Positions 20,034 to 51,060 of a stretch of 64,000 bases of DNA are shown here, piece by piece. The stretch spans positions 6,346 through 70,345 of the forward strand of contig JAVVHA010000012.1 of assembly GCA_032249735.1 (NCBI GenBank), in the 5' to 3' direction. Position numbers and translations under genes: made by a program. Under the pieces are notes generated by a model. That model made no database searches and had not been told where the DNA came from. It saw only the letters and a list, made by a program, of their open reading frames with translations. Each line of letters begins with the position of its first letter. The stretch's first letter is position 1. Origin of the DNA: Dehalococcoidia bacterium. Lineage in GTDB: Bacteria; Chloroflexota; Dehalococcoidia; SM23-28-2; HRBIN24.

Positions 20034-20054
20034 GTCCCAAGGCCTCCAAGTGGG

Positions 20055-20440
20055 GGGGCAGTGGGCCTATAAGCCGGGTTCTGTAGTCGCCCCCTAAGGG
20101 GCGACCGGTGGTCATCAATCTGGGCCTCCCCTTACGGAGAGGCTCAAGCGGCCTACCCGAGGGCATCGGGCCGGGCATCCCTAGGCCCCAAAAGGGGCTC
20201 GCCCTCCTATTTGGCCTTGCTCCGCGTGGGGTTTGGCCAGCCGGCAGGTCGCCCTGCCGCTGGTGGGCTCTTACCCCACCTTTTCACCCTTACCGCCGGA
20301 ATCCCGGCGGCGGTATGGTTTCTGTGCCACTTTCCGCGGGTCGCCCCGCCTGGGCGTTACCCAGCACGCTGCCCGGTGGAGCCCGGACTTTCCTCCCCCC
20401 GCTCACAGGCGGGGGGCGACCACCCGGCCCACTGTGCCCC
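20055..20440 (-). ncRNA. rnpB: RNase P RNA, bacterial type A
   Basis: Reverse complement contains GGAGGAAAGUCCGGGCUCC (P4 5' strand), AGGGUGAAAAGGUGGGGUAAGAGCCCACC, GUGGCACAGAAACCAUACC, and ACAGAACCCGGCUUAUAGG (P4 3' strand). P1 pairs CAGUGGGCC with GGCCCACUG, for a length of about 386 nt. An extended -10 TGTAAAAT at 20455-20462. Confidence 0.9.
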
Positions 20441-43497: not shown

Positions 43498-44448
43498 TTA
43501 CCACCATACCTTCCCCTCCACCTCCTCCGGCTGCAGGGCCTCCTGCCCTTTGGTCCAGAGGCCGGTGGAGAGGTACTTCCAGCCGCCGTCAGCGAACAAG
43601 CAGACGATATTGCCCCGTTGCAGCCTCTCCGCCACCCGCAGGGCGGTGCGCAGGACGGCACCGGAGGAGATGCCGGCAAATATCCCCTCCCGGTCCATCA
43701 GCTCCTTGGTCATGGCAAAGGAAGTGCGGGAGTCCACCACGATGCGTCCGTCCAGCACCGACTCGTCCAACACTGGCGGGATAAACCCTTCCTCCAGGCT
43801 GCGCAGCCCCTGCACGAGGTCGCCAGGATGGGGCACGGTGGCGATGACCTTCACCTTAGGGTTGTGCTCCTTGAGCCGCCGCCCCACACCCGTGAGGGTG
43901 CCGCCGGTCCCCAGCCCCGCCACAAACACGTCCACCTCCGGCAGGTCGCGGATGATCTCCACGGCGGTGGTCTCGTAATGGGCGCGGGGGTTGTTGGGGT
44001 TGCCGTATTGGTAGGGCATGTAGTAGCGCTGGGGGTCCTCCTCCACCATGCGCTGGGCAAGGGCGATGGCGTCGTTGGTGGAGCGGGCCCCCCGGGCATA
44101 CACCACCTCGGCGCCGAAGGAGCGGATGAGCTGTTCCCTCTCAGGGGTCACGTTATCGGGCAGGACGCACACCACCCGATAGCCCTTGACGCGGCCCACC
44201 ATGGCCAGGCTTATGCCCGTATTGCCACTGGTGGGCTCCAGAATGATCTTCTCCGGCGTCAGCGCGCCCGACTCCTCGGCAGCCCGGATCATGTAGAGAG
44301 CGATGCGGTCCTTAAGGCTGCCGCTGGGGTTCTGCCCCTCCAACTTGGCGAAGATGCGCACCCCAGGCTTGGGCTGGAACCGCCGCAGCTCCACCAGGGG
44401 AGTGTTACCGATGCACTCCAAGATGTTGGCATAGACCCTCCCCCCCAT
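43498..44448 (-). CDS. cysM: Cysteine synthase B-type PLP enzyme (CysM-like sulfhydrylase)
   Basis: IGNTPLVEL, SGSLKDR (PLP Lys), and TSGNTGISLA. The ATG at 44448 is preferred. The longer ORF-track start at 44496 would overlap the CysO-like stop. Confidence 0.85.
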   Translation of the reverse strand: MGGRVYANILECIGNTPLVELRRFQPKPGVRIFAKLEGQNPSGSLKDRIALYMIRAAEESGALTPEKIILEPTSGNTGISLAMVGRVKGYRVVCVLPDNVTPEREQLIRSFGAEVVYARGARSTNDAIALAQRMVEEDPQRYYMPYQYGNPNNPRAHYETTAVEIIRDLPEVDVFVAGLGTGGTLTGVGRRLKEHNPKVKVIATVPHPGDLVQGLRSLEEGFIPPVLDESVLDGRIVVDSRTSFAMTKELMDREGIFAGISSGAVLRTALRVAERLQRGNIVCLFADGGWKYLSTGLWTKGQEALQPEEVEGKVWW

Positions 44449-44482
44449 GGCCCGCCTCTTCCCGCTTACGGGCTGCGGCCTC

Positions 44483-44767
44483 TTAACCCCCAACATCTCC
44501 TCCTGCCAGGGCAGGGAGGATGGAGATCACGTCCCCATCCTGCACCGGCGTGTCCAGCTGCTGGAGAAAACGCACGTCTTCATCATTGAGATAGATGTTC
44601 ACGAACCGGTGCAGGCGGCCATTGTCCAAGACGCTGGCCTTGATGCCGGGGAACATCTCGTCCAGGCGGTCCAAGACCTCGCCGATGGTGGCTCCCTCCA
44701 CCTGCACGGAGCGCCTTCCCCCGGCCAGCCTTTGCAGGTTCGCCGTGAGCCTCACCTCTATCGCCAT
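44483..44767 (-). CDS. CysO/MoaD/ThiS-type sulfur-carrier protein with a C-terminal GG followed by a 4-residue extension (…ILPALAGG-DVGG)
   Basis: 94 aa. A beta-grasp pattern like M. tuberculosis CysO (RLAGG..., FVNIYLNDEDVRFLQ, ILPALAGG). The ATG at 44767 has a GGGG RBS. Confidence 0.8.
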   Translation of the reverse strand: MAIEVRLTANLQRLAGGRRSVQVEGATIGEVLDRLDEMFPGIKASVLDNGRLHRFVNIYLNDEDVRFLQQLDTPVQDGDVISILPALAGGDVGG

Positions 44768-44814
44768 TGCCAGCCCCTTTCCATTATATTGCGCAGTCCT
44801 TTCTGCGCATATCT

Positions 44815-45903
44815 TCACTCGTGCCTCCCTGGGAAGGGGGCACCGCAAAAGCCTTCGTAATCGATGAGCTGAGTGATGGTGGGCTCATCGCCACACAGGG
44901 GGCATGCGGGATCCCGCCGCAGCTTGACTACCCGGAACTCGCCCGCCAGGGCATCGTAGAGGAGGAGGCGCCCCACCATGGGCTCGCCGATGCCCAGGAT
45001 GAGCTTTATGGTCTCCACCGCCTGTAGGGAGCCGATGACACCTGTGAGGGCGCCCAGGACGCCCGCCTCAGCACAGCTGGGCACCGCCCCTGGCGGGGGA
45101 GGTGAGGGGAAGAGGCAACGGTAGCAGCCCCGGCCGGGCATGAACACCGTCATCTGGGCGTCGAACATGAGGATGGAGGCGTCCACCAGGGGCTTGCCGG
45201 CGAAGTAACAGGCATCGTTGACCAGGTAGCGGGTGGTGAAGTTGTCGGCCCCGTTCACCACCACGTCATACTGGGGGATGATGTCCATGGCGTTGTCGGA
45301 GGTGAGGGGGCCATCGTGGATGACCACGTTGACGTCCGGATTGTAGGAGAGGATGGTCTCCCTGGCCGACTCCGTCTTGGGGCGCCCTACGTCGTCGTTC
45401 TGATGGAGGATCTGGCGCTGGAGGTTGGAGAGGTCCACCACATCGAAGTCCACGATGCCGATGGTGCCCACGCCGGCCAGGGCCAAGTAGAGGGCGGCGG
45501 GGGAGCCCAGGCCTCCCGCTCCTACCACCAGCACCTTAGCCGCCAGGAGCTTGCGCTGGCCCACCGGGCCCACCTGGGGCATGATGATGTGGCGCGAGTA
45601 GCGCAGCACCTGCTCTGGGGTCAGCACCTGGCCACCGGCGATGGCCGGGATGATGGCCACCTCGTCGCCGTCCTGCACCGGTGTCTCCGGCCCCTGCAGG
45701 GTGTGGATCTCTTGATTGTTGAGGTAGACGTTGATGTGGGCGGGGATATGCCGCTGCTGGTCGAAGATCATGTTGGCCAGGGCGGGGAAGTGACGTGCCA
45801 GGTCCTCTAGGATCTCCCGCACCGTCCTGCCTTGGGCCTGCACATAGACCTGGTTGCCCGTAAGCCTTCGGAAGGGCGTCGGTATGTAGACGGTCACGCT
45901 CAC
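44815..45903 (-). CDS. E1-like adenylyltransferase (MoeB/ThiF/MoeZ family) with an N-terminal fused CysO-like beta-grasp domain; no rhodanese domain
   Basis: The N-terminal 91 aa (VTVYIPTPFRRLTGNQ...VAIIPAIAGG) are a CysO paralogue, followed directly by the E1 Rossmann fold (VLVVGAGGLGSPAALYLALAGVG, crossover-loop Cys in SCAEAGVLG) and a C-terminal CPLCG Zn motif. A GTG start with an AGGAGGAGG RBS. Confidence 0.85.
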   Translation of the reverse strand: MSVTVYIPTPFRRLTGNQVYVQAQGRTVREILEDLARHFPALANMIFDQQRHIPAHINVYLNNQEIHTLQGPETPVQDGDEVAIIPAIAGGQVLTPEQVLRYSRHIIMPQVGPVGQRKLLAAKVLVVGAGGLGSPAALYLALAGVGTIGIVDFDVVDLSNLQRQILHQNDDVGRPKTESARETILSYNPDVNVVIHDGPLTSDNAMDIIPQYDVVVNGADNFTTRYLVNDACYFAGKPLVDASILMFDAQMTVFMPGRGCYRCLFPSPPPPGAVPSCAEAGVLGALTGVIGSLQAVETIKLILGIGEPMVGRLLLYDALAGEFRVVKLRRDPACPLCGDEPTITQLIDYEGFCGAPFPGRHE

Positions 45904-45918
45904 GCTTTTCCTCCTCCT

Positions 45919-46839
45919 TTACTCCAAGAAGCTGTAACGCTCGCCGGTGTCCGGCAGGATGGTCACCACCCGCTTGCCCCGGCCCATCCGCTTGGCCACT
46001 TTGATGGCTGCCACCACATTGGCCCCCGATGATATGCCCACCAGGAGCCCCTCCTCACGGGCCAGACGGCGGGCCATGGCCATGGCCTCTTCGTCCCCCA
46101 CGCCGATGACCTCGTCGATGATGCGCCGGTTGAGGACGCCAGGGACGAAGCTGGCGCCTATGCCCTGGATGGCATGGGGGCCTGGTCTGCCCCCTTGCAA
46201 GACGGGCGAGCGGGAGGGCTCCACTGCCACCACCAAGATGTTGGGGTTGTGCTGCTTTAGGACCTCGCCAACGCCGGTGATGGTGCCGCCCGTGCCCACC
46301 CCAGCCACGAAGGCGTCCAGCCGCCCCTCCGTGGCCTCCAAGATCTCCTGGGCGGTGGTGCGACGGTGGATCTCGGGGTTGGCGGGGTTCTCGAACTGCT
46401 GGGGCATGAAGTAGTCGGGGTTGTTGCGCACCAGCTCCTCAGCGGCGTAGACCGCCCCCGTCATCCCCTCTAGGGCCGGGGTGAGGACCACCTCCGCCCC
46501 GAATCGGGCCAGGAGGTCGCGACGGGCCAGGCTCATGTCTTCGGGCATGGTGACGATGAGGCGGTACCCCTTCACAGCCGCCACCATGGCCAGGCCGATG
46601 CCCGTGTTACCGCTGGTGGGTTCCACGATGGTAGCCCCTGGCTTGAGGATGCCCCGTCGCTCGGCGTCCTCGATCATGGAGAGGGCGATGCGATCCTTGA
46701 CGGAGCCAGCGGGGTTGAGGGACTCCAGCTTAGCCACGATCTCTGCCGCCCCATTGGGCACCACGCGGTTGAGGCGCACCATGGGCGTGTCGCCTATAAG
46801 GTCGAGGACGCTGTCCACGATCCTAGCGCGCCTGGCCAT
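45919..46839 (-). CDS. cysK: Cysteine synthase A (O-acetylserine sulfhydrylase)
   Basis: [26 protein letters not shown], and [10 protein letters not shown]. Confidence 0.9.
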
Positions 46840-46847
46840 GCTCGCCC

Positions 46848-47291
46848 CTAGATAACGTACCTATCGGCCCGCACCGCCCGCTGCCGGTCCTTGGCGGCCA
46901 GCTCGGCTATGGTCACCCGGTCCAGCACTTGCATAATGGCTCGCTGGACCTCCTCCCACATCTCCCGCTGGGCACAGCCGCCGGCGCGGCTGCACTCGGA
47001 GGCCTCCTCCAGACACTCCACCGGTATGAGCTCTCCCTCGAGGGCCCTTATGACGTCGCTCACCCTTATCTCGTTGGGGTGGCGGGCCAGGGCATGCCCC
47101 CCCTGCGGGCCCCGCACGCTGCGCACCAGCCCAGCCCGCCGCAGCATGGCCAAAAGCTGCTCCAGATAAGACTCAGGGATGTTCTGGCGAGCGGCGATCT
47201 CAGCGCTCTGGGTGAGCCGTCCTTCCCCATACCGGTGGGCCAGCTCGATGAGGGCGCGGATGCCGTAGTCCCCCTTGCTCGATATGCGCAT
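46848..47291 (-). CDS. Rrf2-family transcriptional regulator (CymR/IscR-like)
   Basis: [18 protein letters not shown], wHTH, and C-terminal Cys residues (CSRAGGC). The ATG is at 47291. Confidence 0.85.
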
Positions 47292-47363
47292 GCATCCCAC
47301 CAAGAAAGTGGAGTGGTTTCATCAACAATACTAGCATGGGCCATGTGTGGGGGCAAGGGGCCG

Positions 47364-47627
47364 CTAAGGCGCCGGGCGGGTGGGTGGCAGACCTAGGCGA
47401 GCGGCCAGCTCCCCGTTGGTGGGCTCCACTAGATAGTCTCCTTCGGGGAACACCACCACCGGTATGATGAAGCGGCCCCCATTGACCTGAAGGACGTACT
47501 GCCTGGCCTCCTGGTCGGCCTCCACGTCCAGCCAGCGGAAGGGTACGCCCCAGTCGGTGAGGAACTGCTTGGCGCGACGGCAGTCGGGGCACCAGTTGGC
47601 CCCATAGACGTATACGATGCCAGTCAC
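47364..47627 (-). CDS. Glutaredoxin-like small redox protein (CPDC motif)
   Basis: [20 protein letters not shown], a thioredoxin-fold N-terminus. The GTG start overlaps the upstream stop (GTGA). Confidence 0.7.
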
Positions 47628-47905
47628 GCCCCGCCTCCCGCCACAGCGGGCACGATGCTTACCTCATCACCTGGCTTGAGGACGGTATCCAGACCTTGGA
47701 GGAAGCGCACGTCCTCGCCGTTGACGTATACGTTGACGAAGCGGCGCAACTGGCCCGCCTCGTCCACAAGCCGCTCCTTGAGGCCCGGGAACCGGGCCTC
47801 AAGGGCCTCGATGCAGTCCTTGAGGCGGGAGCCCTCGGCGGTCACCACCTCCTGGCCACCGGTGAGGCGGCGCAAGGGGGCTGGGATGCGTACCTTCACG
47901 CTCAT
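47624..47905 (-). CDS. CysO/MoaD/ThiS-type sulfur-carrier protein, C-terminus …[10 protein letters not shown]
   Basis: [31 protein letters not shown], and IVPAVAGG closely mirror M. tuberculosis CysO. Two extra residues follow the Gly-Gly. Confidence 0.85.
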
Positions 47906-47917
47906 GTTCGCGGCACC

Positions 47918-48160
47918 TCAACCCTCCATGATGTCACCGGGCACGGGGTCCACCCTCACCCCCTGCTCCTCCACCCACCTTATCCCACGCTCGATCTCCT
48001 CCATATCCCCCTCCAGCTCGAGGACGACCCATCCCTGGGTCTCGGTGACGTCGGCGCGGCGGATGTTGGTTACCACGTTGAAGTTCTTACCCAGGCGCCA
48101 AATGATGGGCTCCTGCACTAGCTGAGGGGGGAAGGTGAATTTGACCCGCTGTTTGGCCAC
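47918..48160 (-). CDS. Stand-alone NIL-domain protein (MetN C-terminal-like substrate-binding domain)
   Basis: An 80-aa beta-alpha-beta-beta-alpha-beta pattern (VKFTFPPQLVQEPIIWRLGKNFNVVTNIRRADVTETQGWVVLELEGDMEEIERGIRWVEEQGVRVD). The GTG at 48160 lies 11 nt after the thrC-like stop. The ORF-track TTG at 48223 would overlap upstream. Confidence 0.6.
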   Translation of the reverse strand: MAKQRVKFTFPPQLVQEPIIWRLGKNFNVVTNIRRADVTETQGWVVLELEGDMEEIERGIRWVEEQGVRVDPVPGDIMEG

Positions 48161-48170
48161 GTTACCACCC

Positions 48171-49421
48171 CTACCCTTTGCTGGCCATGAGGGCTTCCTG
48201 ACGACGGGCCATAGCCTCCTCAAAGGAGGCGATGGTGGGCATTACCACCACGGGCTCAGGCAGGACGCCCTCTACGGCCTCCCGCGTCTTAAGGCCGGCC
48301 CCTGTGATGAATGCTACCACCGTCTCGTCCGGGGCGAAAGAGCCTGCCTGGGCCAGACGCTTGAGGGCAGCCACCACCACCCCCCCAGCCGTCTCAGCGA
48401 ATATCCCTTCTGTCTCGGCCAGGAGCCGCATCCCCTCCACGATCTCATCGTCGGACACGGCCACCCCATAGCCACCGCTCTCGTTGAGGACGCGCAGGGC
48501 GTAATAGCCGTCGGCGGGGTTGCCAATGGCCAACGATTTGGCGATGGTGTTGGGGCGCTGGGGTCGGATATCGTAGCTCTTGCGCTCCCAGGCCTCCACC
48601 ACCGGTGAGCAGCCCAAGGCCTGAGCGGCCGTCATGCGCGGTGGCCGCCACTCCACCAGGCCCAGCCAGGCCAGCTCCTTCATGCCCTTGTAGATCTTGG
48701 TGAACAGGGAGCCGCTGGCCACCGGCACCACGCAGTGATGGGGGATGCGCCAGCCCAGCTGCTCGCACACCTCGTAGCCCAGGGTCTTGGAGCCTTCAGC
48801 GTAATAGGGGCGGACGTTGATGTTAACGAAGGCCCATGGGTACCTCTCGGCCAGCTCGCTGCACAGGCGGTTGACATCATCATAGGACCCCTTCACGGCC
48901 ACCAGGGTGGGGCCATAGATGGCCGAGCCCACCACCTTGCCCACCTCCAGGTCGGCGGGGATGAAGACTAGAGCCCGCAGCCCAGCGCGGGCGGCATGAG
49001 CGGCTACGGAGTTAGCCAGGTTGCCAGTGGAGGCACAGGCCAAGGTATCGAAGCCGAACTCCCGGGCCTTGGTGGCCGCCACCGATACCACCCGGTCTTT
49101 GAAGGACCAGGTGGGGTTTACGCAATCGTTCTTAATATAGAGGTGGCGCAGCCCCAGGGCCTTGCCCAGACGGGGAGCAGGCAACAGAGGGGTGAAGCCA
49201 GCGCCGATGTCCACCGGCTCCCCTTCCACCGGCAATAGTTCGCGATAGCGCCAGATGGTGTAAGGCCCCCCCTCGATGCGGCGACGAGATATGTGCCTGC
49301 GTAGGGCCTCGTAATCGTAAGTCACTTCCAGGGGTCCGAAGCAGAACTCGCACACATATATGGGCTCCAGCGGGTACAGGCGCCCACACTCGCGACACCT
49401 CAGACTTTTGGCGAAGGACAT
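48171..49421 (-). CDS. Threonine-synthase-family PLP enzyme with an N-terminal Zn-ribbon (candidate homocysteine-forming MetM-like enzyme)
   Basis: CRECG...CEFC ribbon, SFKDR (PLP Lys), and ASTGNLANSVAAHAARAG. The ATG at 49421 has a GGAGGG RBS and lies 20 nt downstream of the riboswitch terminator. Confidence 0.85.
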   Translation of the reverse strand: MSFAKSLRCRECGRLYPLEPIYVCEFCFGPLEVTYDYEALRRHISRRRIEGGPYTIWRYRELLPVEGEPVDIGAGFTPLLPAPRLGKALGLRHLYIKNDCVNPTWSFKDRVVSVAATKAREFGFDTLACASTGNLANSVAAHAARAGLRALVFIPADLEVGKVVGSAIYGPTLVAVKGSYDDVNRLCSELAERYPWAFVNINVRPYYAEGSKTLGYEVCEQLGWRIPHHCVVPVASGSLFTKIYKGMKELAWLGLVEWRPPRMTAAQALGCSPVVEAWERKSYDIRPQRPNTIAKSLAIGNPADGYYALRVLNESGGYGVAVSDDEIVEGMRLLAETEGIFAETAGGVVVAALKRLAQAGSFAPDETVVAFITGAGLKTREAVEGVLPEPVVVMPTIASFEEAMARRQEALMASKG

Positions 49422-49442
49422 GCCCAGCCCTCCTGCTCTCCC

Positions 49443-49476
49443 AAAATACAACTTATGCGGCCCCCCCCGGGGCCGC
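49443..49476 (-). terminator. Intrinsic terminator forming the riboswitch expression platform
   Basis: Minus-strand GCGGCCCC-GGGG-GGGGCCGC hairpin followed by AUAAGUUGUAUUUUGG. Confidence 0.6.
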
Positions 49477-49571
49477 CTCGCCTTCGGTCCCCCGCCACAT
49501 CCCGCGCGCCGGCGCCCATTGCAATAAAGGAGGCCCCTTCCACTAGAGGGAAGAGGCCATATCCAGGCCAG

Positions 49572-49716
49572 CTCCCCCTTATCGTCCCCCACCTCAAGGC
49601 GGGGACGGCGTTGGCACCGCTGCACGGGCTCGGCTCAGGACCTGAAGCCCTGGCCTGACCCCGGCCGGTTGCCGGGCTTCACAGGGCCGTTCCCTCCACC
49701 TCTCTGGATAAGAGGG
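49572..49716 (-). promoter_or_regulatory. SAM-I (S-box) riboswitch aptamer
   Basis: Minus-strand CUCUUAUCCAGAGAGGUGGAGGGAACGGCCCUGUGAAGCCCGGCAACC...GGUGCCAACGCCGUCC...GAUAAGGGGGAG matches the S-box consensus (UCUUAUCnAGAG.GGnGGAGGGAnnGGCCC.AUGAAnCCCnGCAACC...GGUGCnAA...GAUAAG), with P1 closed by CUCUUAUC/GAUAAGGG. Confidence 0.85.
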
Positions 49717-49743
49717 GCCGTATTCGGTTGTCAGGGCTTTATC

Positions 49744-51060
49744 CTAGCATGCCCCCCACTGTGTGTCAACGGGCCGCGGGGCCCCCTCGCGCCCCCTTGG
49801 CAGAACTACCACGAAGGTGGCACCCCGCCCCAGCTGGCTCTCTGCCCAGATGCGGCCGCCGTGGGCCTCCACTATGGCCTTAGCGATGGCCAGCCCCAGC
49901 CCCGCCCCTCCATCCTCATCGCGGCGGCGGGCGCGGTCGGCCCGATAGAAGCGGTCGAAGATGCGGGGCAGGTCCTGGGGGTCGATGCCCACCCCTGTAT
50001 CGGCCACCTCCAGACGGGCCCTATCGCCATCGGCGGCGGCCCTCACCTCCACCCTGCCTCCCGCGGGGGTGAATTTGATGGCGTTGTCCAACAGGATGAA
50101 CAGAAGCTCCCGCAGGCGGGTGGCATCGCCCCACAGGGGGACGGCGCCCGGGGCCACCACCTCTCCTTGCAGGCCCTTCTCCTGAAGGCGGGGCGAGAGC
50201 TGACGCACGGCGTCCCGAGCCAACTGGGCCAAGTCCACCTCCTCCCTGTGCAGGGGAAGACGGCCAGCGTCGGCCCGAGCCAGGGTCAGCAGCTGGGACA
50301 CGAGGCGGGCCAGTCGCTCGCTCTCGCCGATGATATCCTCCACCTCCTGCCGGTGAGCCGAGATAGGCTCCTCGGGGTGACGTTGGAGGATCTCGGCGCT
50401 GGCCCTGATGAGGGAGAGGGGGGTCCGGAGTTCATGGGAGGCATCGGCCATGAAGGTCCGCTGGCGCTCCATAGCCTCTTTGATGGGACGGAGGGCCCGC
50501 CCGGCCAAGAAATAGCCCCCGCCTACCGACAGGAGGATGGCACCTACCCCTCCTGCCAGCAGAATCACCAGGAGGTTGTGCAGGGCAGATAGCTCAGGCT
50601 CGAGGCTCCGTCCCACCAGTAGCACCAGCCCAGGGCCCATCCCCACGGGCCGCAGATAGATACGCACCTCCTCCCCATCGTGCGACTGGACGGTCAGGAG
50701 CTTGGGCCCCCTTGCTAACACCTCCTGCGTATCCTGGGACGGGGGGAGAATGGTGGGGTCCAAGTTGCGGCTGGCGGCCAGGAGCTGCCCATGGGGCCCT
50801 AACAGGGCATACATATATGCGTAGGACCCCTCCTCTGGCCCCACCTGAACATCCCCTATGGCCTGCTGCCTCTCCAGGAGGCGTAGACGGGCATTGAGGA
50901 GGGGCAGCTCCCGTTCCGCCCGCGTGCGCAGCTCGTCGTCCACGTTCCCCAGCACCATGTGACGGACCGTGAGGTACACGGCTAGGCCCAATAGGGTCAG
51001 GGCCACCGCCAGGACTGCCGCAAACCAAAGGGCGAGGCGCCAGCGAGCGGACGCGAACAC
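49744..51060 (-). CDS. Two-component sensor histidine kinase (TM, HAMP, HisKA, HATPase)
   Basis: Two TM helices, ASHELRTPLSLI (H-box), and N, G1 and G2 boxes. Confidence 0.9.
   Translation of the reverse strand: MFASARWRLALWFAAVLAVALTLLGLAVYLTVRHMVLGNVDDELRTRAERELPLLNARLRLLERQQAIGDVQVGPEEGSYAYMYALLGPHGQLLAASRNLDPTILPPSQDTQEVLARGPKLLTVQSHDGEEVRIYLRPVGMGPGLVLLVGRSLEPELSALHNLLVILLAGGVGAILLSVGGGYFLAGRALRPIKEAMERQRTFMADASHELRTPLSLIRASAEILQRHPEEPISAHRQEVEDIIGESERLARLVSQLLTLARADAGRLPLHREEVDLAQLARDAVRQLSPRLQEKGLQGEVVAPGAVPLWGDATRLRELLFILLDNAIKFTPAGGRVEVRAAADGDRARLEVADTGVGIDPQDLPRIFDRFYRADRARRRDEDGGAGLGLAIAKAIVEAHGGRIWAESQLGRGATFVVVLPRGREGAPRPVDTQWGAC

Follow-up and report, generated by a model that had tools for sequence, protein, structure and literature searches.

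We analyzed a 64,000-nucleotide (nt) stretch of a Dehalococcoidia contig (JAVVHA010000012.1), called the window below, and describe a leader on its minus strand that runs from the 3ʹ end of a histidine kinase gene to a threonine synthase homologue at the head of a sulfur gene cluster. The leader holds a predicted riboswitch for S-adenosylmethionine (SAM) of the SAM-I (S-box) class. In the direction of transcription, the leader and the first gene behind it contain the following features.

49741 to 49769, minus strand: predicted sigma-70-type promoter of the riboswitch (consensus match, conservation)
49576 to 49714, minus strand: SAM-I (S-box) aptamer (Rfam family RF00162, covariation)
49545 to 49579, minus strand: predicted antiterminator (local unconstrained minimum-free-energy fold)
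49522 to 49558, minus strand: intrinsic terminator (terminator scan, fold, conservation)
49443 to 49476, minus strand: GC hairpin of 8 base pairs (bp), then AUAAGUUGUAUUUU; taken for the terminator in a preliminary description of the locus, not terminator-like
49429 to 49434, minus strand: Shine-Dalgarno sequence AGGAGG, 7 nt upstream of the ATG at 49421-49419
48171 to 49421, minus strand: threonine synthase homologue, a MetM-like pyridoxal phosphate (PLP) enzyme of 416 amino acids (aa) and the first regulated gene (Pfam, NCBIfam, synteny)

The whole window was scanned against Rfam 15 at gathering thresholds. Two matches were obtained, an RNase P RNA and RF00162 (SAM-I), so that the latter was the sole riboswitch match within the 64 kb. 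RF00162 matched at 49714-49576 on the minus strand with 74.1 bits (E 1.7e-15), well above its gathering threshold of 44.4 bits, and the match covered positions 1-108 of the 108 in the model. The preliminary description, which was made from the letters of the sequence, had recognized a minus-strand SAM-I element by its S-box core in the reverse complement of 49716-49572 and had named an Rfam search as a check. Reading of the minus strand reproduced the quoted sequence, and the significant Rfam match confirmed the element. When 49300-49850 was rescanned permissively (E<=1), one match other than SAM-I appeared, TCV_Pr (E 0.71). It sits on the terminator hairpin and was rejected as a second leader element, being a chance match.

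The aptamer comprises the following parts.

49714-49707 with 49583-49576, minus strand: P1, which can be extended by 2 bp
about 49701-49675, minus strand: P2, including the k-turn region
49673-49613, minus strand: P3, with a distal stem about 30 nt longer than the consensus
49612-49605, minus strand: J3/4
about 49604-49587, minus strand: P4

All core nucleotides of the class were found in the window, namely AGA in J1/2, the P2 k-turn GGUGGAGGGA...UGAAG, GGCAACC...GGUGCC in P3, and AA in J3/4, and these were invariant in sets of 11 and 32 homologues. The aptamer was unusual only in its longer distal P3 stem, with 40 nt in the window versus 9 in the Rfam consensus. As read from the alignment, ACGG in the P2 loop (49690-49687) is complementary to CCGU in J3/4 (49608-49605), and the two may form a pseudoknot. 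The CGG/CCG core of this pairing was near-invariant in 32 sequences, so there was no covariation by which to judge it, and the fourth pair was inconsistent.

Using the protein encoded at 49421-48171, we gathered 80 related loci with 63-85% identity, all from metagenome-assembled genomes of Chloroflexota/Dehalococcoidia except for one Bacillota bin. Of 11 relatives tested with Rfam, 10 had SAM-I in front of the same gene, and a covariance model built from these sequences found it in 31 of the 80 loci. The 32 homologous aptamers were then aligned, and covariation was analyzed over 30 pairs with 500 shuffles and with controls in which the pairing partners were slid. Paired cells made up 93.8% of the alignment, versus 83.0% after shuffling and 37-50% with slid partners. 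Both sides had changed in 14 of the 30 pairs, and the covariation score was 0.293 versus 0.118 in shuffles, none of the 500 being as high, and 0.04-0.09 in the slid controls. P4 covaried in all seven of its pairs and P3 and P1 in part, while P2 never varied across the alignment and was hence uninformative. The lengths of the homologous aptamers ranged from 99 to 163 nt, with P3 freely variable in length. These results supported the P1-P4 four-way junction, for which the preliminary description had proposed a covariation check. We concluded from the model match and the covariation that the minus-strand element is a SAM-I aptamer, and it would be expected to bind SAM.

A terminator scan of 49000-50200 found one strong site on the minus strand, a hairpin at 49558-49532 with 10 pairs, 7 of them G-C. 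The hairpin begins 17 nt past P1 and has an energy of -18.4 kcal/mol. Together with its tail it is composed as follows.

49558-49549, minus strand: terminator 5ʹ arm, GGCCUCUUCC
49548-49542, minus strand: terminator loop
49541-49532, minus strand: terminator 3ʹ arm, GGAAGGGGCC
49531-49522, minus strand: U-rich tail, UCCUUUAUUG

Of 31 related leaders, 29 contain a CCUCUUC...GAAGAGG hairpin with a U-run behind it, the hairpin beginning at most about 35 nt from the aptamer end, and the terminator is kept in the closest relatives of the window, L001 and L002. For the analysis of alternative structures, local and constrained folds were used in place of a whole-leader fold. An antiterminator was formed in the local unconstrained fold, as the preliminary description had suggested checking. 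In this structure, AGGGGGAG (49579-49572), which overlaps the P1 3ʹ strand, pairs with UUCCCUCU (49552-49545), which lies inside the terminator 5ʹ arm, and an inner GGCC/GGCC helix joins 49569-66 with 49558-55. The antiterminator state had an energy of -102.2 kcal/mol and the forced combination of P1 and terminator one of -100.9 kcal/mol, so that the two states are near-isoenergetic. The expression platform is thus the predicted terminator (OFF) at 49558-49532. The preliminary description had coupled the aptamer to an intrinsic-terminator OFF platform, and this type of platform was upheld, but the hairpin that had been chosen, and with it an OFF switch that ends some 20 nt short of the start codon, was not: the switch terminator ends near 49522, about 100 nt ahead of the ATG at 49421.

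Taken together, the leader is very probably a canonical SAM-I riboswitch that controls a MetM-like sulfur-carrier operon by transcription attenuation, and switching itself would depend on SAM. Transcription would start at the riboswitch's own promoter at 49769-49741, and the nascent leader would fold into the four-way-junction aptamer at 49714-49576. When SAM is abundant, P1 would be stabilized and its 3ʹ strand kept from the antiterminator. With P1 held, the hairpin at 49558-49532 and its U-rich tail would form, and RNA polymerase would terminate near 49522. When SAM is scarce, AGGGGGAG (49579-49572) would instead pair with UUCCCUCU (49552-49545), no terminator would form, and transcription would run on for about 100 nt to the AGGAGG and ATG of the metM-like gene. 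The metM-like, NIL-domain, thiS-like (metO-like) and glutaredoxin-like genes expressed in this way may constitute a thiocarboxylate-dependent pathway to homocysteine and methionine.

Several points weigh against this interpretation. The P1 3ʹ strand and the 5ʹ arm of the terminator (AGGGGGAG/UUCCCUCU) were no more complementary than composition-matched shuffles, a test that is non-discriminating here because a purine-rich strand will pair with a pyrimidine-rich one whatever the order of the bases. The terminator has an interrupted U-tail (UCCUUUAUUG), and the efficiency of termination is uncertain. The minimum-free-energy fold of the whole 317-nt leader was ruled by long-range GC pairs and, with a z-score of -2.2, was uninformative. 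The spacer of about 100 nt from the terminator to the start codon, which is GC-rich and holds a strong hairpin (49476-49457), is not accounted for. In addition, the assignment of the first gene as MetM-like is putative and rests on homology, synteny and literature.

The promoter by which the leader would be transcribed overlaps the 3ʹ end of the gene upstream.

51060-49744, minus strand: histidine kinase open reading frame with HisKA and HATPase_c domains, stop TAG at 49746-49744
49769-49764, minus strand: -35 box TTGACA, with a spacer of 17 nt
49749-49748, minus strand: upstream TG (extended -10)
49746-49741, minus strand: -10 box TAGGAT, overlapping the kinase stop

The promoter matches the consensus at 10 of 12 positions, where 0.1 sites were expected in shuffles, and transcription would start near 49734. 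It lies within the 3ʹ end of the kinase gene, whose last 16 codons are past the HATPase_c domain. The promoter is kept in L001 and L002, and about 28 of 31 related loci, the upstream genes of which differ, have a sequence of the form TTGACx-17/18-TAGCAT with TG that precedes P1 by 17-31 nt. The riboswitch evidently has its own promoter.

This bears on the alternative that the riboswitch mainly gates read-through transcription from the response regulator/histidine kinase operon, and not transcripts from its own promoter. The preliminary description had placed the aptamer about 28 nt past the kinase stop, which is accurate, since the TAG is 27-29 nt before P1, and had proposed that read-through from the two-component system would also be gated. 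Such read-through is possible because no terminator intervenes, none having been predicted by the scan between the kinase stop and P1. The proposal is, however, unsupported in other respects: the extended -10 promoter is placed alike in loci with other upstream genes, and in none of the 80 other loci does a kinase gene directly precede the riboswitch. We therefore consider it unlikely that gating of read-through is the main role of the riboswitch, and the adjacency of kinase and riboswitch looks incidental.

The second alternative concerns the spacer and the ribosome-binding site. Read-through transcripts could also be repressed at translation, either by pairing of CCUCCU with AGGAGG or by the spacer acting as a second sensor. 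The terminator has CCUCCU on its 3ʹ edge (49533-49528), a perfect complement of AGGAGG about 95 nt downstream (49434-49429), and in one local fold the spacer is closed by their pairing. The Shine-Dalgarno region, GCAGGAGG, is kept in L001 and L002; CCUCCU is absent from both. Complementarity between the window spacer and the ribosome-binding site was no better than chance, with 406 and 470 of 500 shuffles at least as good, and sequestration of the ribosome-binding site by any segment of the window spacer was rejected on this ground. The match between CCUCCU and AGGAGG is probably fortuitous.

The idea of a second sensor draws on a different leader, which we found in the relatives. The exact 9-mer ATGGCGATG precedes the start codon by 76-132 nt in 36 of the 80 related loci, among them loci with SAM-I as well as loci without. 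It is followed by a GC-rich hairpin with variable, compensating sequence and often by one or two more hairpins. In loci with SAM-I, this AUGGCGAUG-hairpin leader stands in tandem, 3ʹ of the SAM-I terminator. Examples from the relatives, and not from the window, are L021:5899-6003, L023:246-362, L018:5906-6003 and L006:5907-6003. In unconstrained folds of the relatives, a closing helix pairs AUGGCGAUG(CCUC) with (GAGG)UAUCGCCAU, which comprises the Shine-Dalgarno sequence, the spacer and the start codon, and the pairing of AUGGCGAUG with the ribosome-binding site beat shuffles in 24 of the 36 loci. Rfam gave no match on this leader even at E<=10. A model built from 14 of the sequences matched at the 9-mer before the gene in 11 loci beyond these, with one borderline off-target match (L013, 4748-4781, minus strand, E 0.0089). 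The AUGGCGAUG segment was also considered as an N-terminal extension of MetM, which was rejected since only about one third of the loci have it in the reading frame of the start codon. The leader is a candidate for an undescribed translational leader or riboswitch of these relatives.

About 49 of the 80 loci lack SAM-I and yet have the same metM-like, NIL and thiS-like genes, for example L006, L025, L029, L048 and L055. Rfam showed no riboswitch, whatever its class, upstream of the metM-like gene in 12 such loci. A search of 11 loci at gathering score was negative, as was one of L021 at E<=10.

The window is not demonstrably a carrier of the AUGGCGAUG-hairpin leader. Its model gave nothing at 49484-49457 at E<=10 with filters off, the best E in the window being 0.12, which is not significant, and nothing in L001 or L002. 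The hairpin at 49476-49457 was therefore rejected as a homologue of the element: the 9-mer occurs at 49484-49476 with 2 mismatches, and the model has no match there. That the spacer of about 100 nt, including this hairpin, is a diverged copy of the second leader element of the relatives seems quite improbable. If it were, the operon would be under tandem control by a transcriptional SAM switch and a translational switch for another signal. Considering the shuffles, the absence of CCUCCU from the closest relatives and the blank model result, we give equally little weight to dual control of the window operon as a whole, even though the pairing of the ribosome-binding site in many relatives speaks in its favor, and hold to the predicted regulation by SAM-dependent termination after P1.

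The hairpin at 49476-49457 was the terminator in the model of the preliminary description, where the aptamer was coupled to this 8-bp GC hairpin and a U-tract, the UUUU run at 49446-49443. The hairpin is real and strong: its arms, GCGGCCCC (49476-49469) and GGGGCCGC (49464-49457), enclose a GGGG loop with an energy of -20.6 kcal/mol, and a run of four U does lie downstream. The 8 nt 3ʹ of the stem are, however, AUAAGUUG, and the U-run begins only 10 nt past the stem. The hairpin was not among the sites of the terminator scan, it lies more than 100 nt from P1 and showed no competing pairing with the aptamer, and its sequence is not kept in L001 or L002. Moreover, a terminator and a predicted antiterminator already stand directly after P1, the former kept in 29 of 31 relatives. 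Because there is no adjacent U-run, the scan did not list the site, no pairing competes with the aptamer and the closest relatives lack it, this hairpin is not the riboswitch terminator, and the coupling proposed for it is very unlikely.

Lastly, it is hardly credible that the aptamer is a decayed, non-functional relic, as its unusual P3 insertion (40 nt against 9) and imperfect terminator U-tail might suggest, since all conserved core positions are intact, the score is 30 bits above the threshold, P3 length varies freely among functional-looking homologues with aptamers of 99 to 163 nt, and conservation extends to the promoter, the terminator and the ribosome-binding site.

Downstream of the leader, nine genes from 49421 to 43498 share the strand of the leader and either overlap or are separated by short gaps, and no internal terminator was predicted in the cluster. 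The first gene is followed by three small ones.

47918 to 48160, minus strand: stand-alone NIL-domain protein of about 80 aa, with a probable GTG start at 48160
47624 to 47905, minus strand: ThiS/MoaD-family sulfur carrier (MetO-like) of 93 aa (Pfam ThiS, MoaD/SAMP1 models)
47364 to 47627, minus strand: glutaredoxin/mycoredoxin-like protein of 87 aa (Pfam Glutaredoxin, 1.2e-13)

The 416-aa protein matched Pfam PALP (1.2e-74) and the NCBIfam model "threonine synthase" with 317 bits against a cutoff of 303 bits. Solved ThrC structures matched at E 7e-65, aligning only from residue ~53, and the protein has an extra N-terminal Cys4 zinc ribbon of about 52 aa. We infer from homology and gene order that it is a putative sulfur-carrier-dependent homocysteine synthase, similar to MetM. 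The NIL-domain protein matched Pfam NIL (6.5e-16), and its only solved relative was the C-terminal domain of MetN (3dhx), with a weak match. In most of the 80 loci, its gene separates the metM-like gene from the thiS-like one. The MetO-like carrier matched Pfam ThiS (2.4e-22), the match ending at residue 91 of 93, and has two residues past the Gly-Gly motif (...AGG-GA). The unit under riboswitch control probably ends with the glutaredoxin-like gene, which overlaps the stop of the thiS-like gene by 4 nt. Synteny of the metM-like, NIL and thiS-like genes was kept in nearly all 80 loci; the Rrf2-cysK module that follows was separate in many. For this reason we assigned the genes from the metM-like to the glutaredoxin-like one to the riboswitch, the control of which may reach further down the cluster.

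Pairing of a SAM riboswitch with metM has precedent. In Streptomyces albulus, MetM converts O-phosphohomoserine to homocysteine with the sulfur carrier MetO, MoeZ and Mec, and MetM is a threonine synthase homologue that is often misannotated, according to the GapMind 2026 preprint. A SAM riboswitch upstream of S. albulus metM was reported by Hasebe et al. 2024, as cited in PMC12172450 and in the GapMind 2026 preprint. The window resembles this system in that a SAM riboswitch precedes a threonine synthase homologue beside a gene for a ThiS-type carrier. The hosts belong to different phyla, and in the window the metM-like and metO-like genes are separated by a NIL gene and a glutaredoxin-like gene comes after them. 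The stand-alone NIL gene does not seem to belong to the two-gene MetM/MetO description of S. albulus. NIL-domain proteins have been tied to homocysteine synthesis in methanogens (PMC5764234).

As an RNA, the window element is a textbook example, and it fits the pairing of SAM riboswitch and metM already reported. It shares with the SAM-I leaders of Bacillota, such as those of Bacillus subtilis yitJ and metI and the Thermoanaerobacter tengcongensis metF aptamer, the P1-P4 junction and core, the complementarity between the P2 loop and J3/4, and, by prediction, the OFF logic in front of genes for methionine and sulfur metabolism. In those leaders, the P1 3ʹ strand is common to the aptamer and to an antiterminator that competes with a terminator after the aptamer, as predicted in the window. 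In contrast to them, the window element belongs to an uncultured, high-GC Chloroflexota (Dehalococcoidia-like) host, and it has a longer distal P3 stem, an interrupted U-tail and a GC-rich spacer of about 100 nt from the terminator to the start codon. Another SAM-I aptamer that controls a met operon is SAM-I_Xcc of Xanthomonas campestris (PMC7270179). SAM-I_Xcc is reported to act mainly on translation and to sense uncharged initiator tRNA as well, whereas a terminator and an antiterminator are predicted in the window and sequestration of the ribosome-binding site was not above chance.

The element provides a correct regulatory annotation for a methionine/sulfur operon of Chloroflexota and would favor a MetM-like enzyme of the methionine pathway over ThrC as the identity of the "threonine synthase" at 49421-48171, which is relevant to metabolic reconstruction of uncultured Dehalococcoidia. 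It would also extend the link between SAM riboswitch and metM beyond Streptomyces to another phylum. Potentially new biology lies only in the AUGGCGAUG-hairpin leader of the relatives, which is outside the window, and in the conserved stand-alone NIL-domain gene.

Directly downstream of the glutaredoxin-like gene, a second sulfur module (43498-47303, minus strand) carries genes for cysteine synthesis of the CysO/CysM type.

47303-46848, minus strand: Rrf2/CymR-like regulator
46839-45919, minus strand: CysK
45903-44815, minus strand: ThiS-ThiF fusion (ThiF/MoeZ-like E1 enzyme)
44848-44483, minus strand: third ThiS
44496-43498, minus strand: CysM-like enzyme

Sulfur transfer by protein thiocarboxylates occurs in the CysO-CysM-Mec system of Mycobacterium tuberculosis and in HcyS-type methionine synthesis of Wolinella succinogenes. 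The window cluster likewise has ThiS-like modules, three in number, an E1-like ThiF/MoeZ protein, and PLP enzymes of the CysM/CysK/ThrC fold. It differs from those systems in having a ThiS-E1 fusion and extra residues past Gly-Gly. All three ThiS modules have such residues, as GG-GA, as GG-DVGG, or by fusion to E1, which implies proteolytic maturation. The JAMM protease of those systems was not found: in a crude regular-expression scan for the motif HxH...SxxD, no open reading frame in the 64-kb window had the motif in a plausible context, and such a gene may be present in another part of the genome.

The other Rfam match in the window was far from the leader.

20054-20435, minus strand: bacterial RNase P RNA class A (Rfam, 294 bits, full length)

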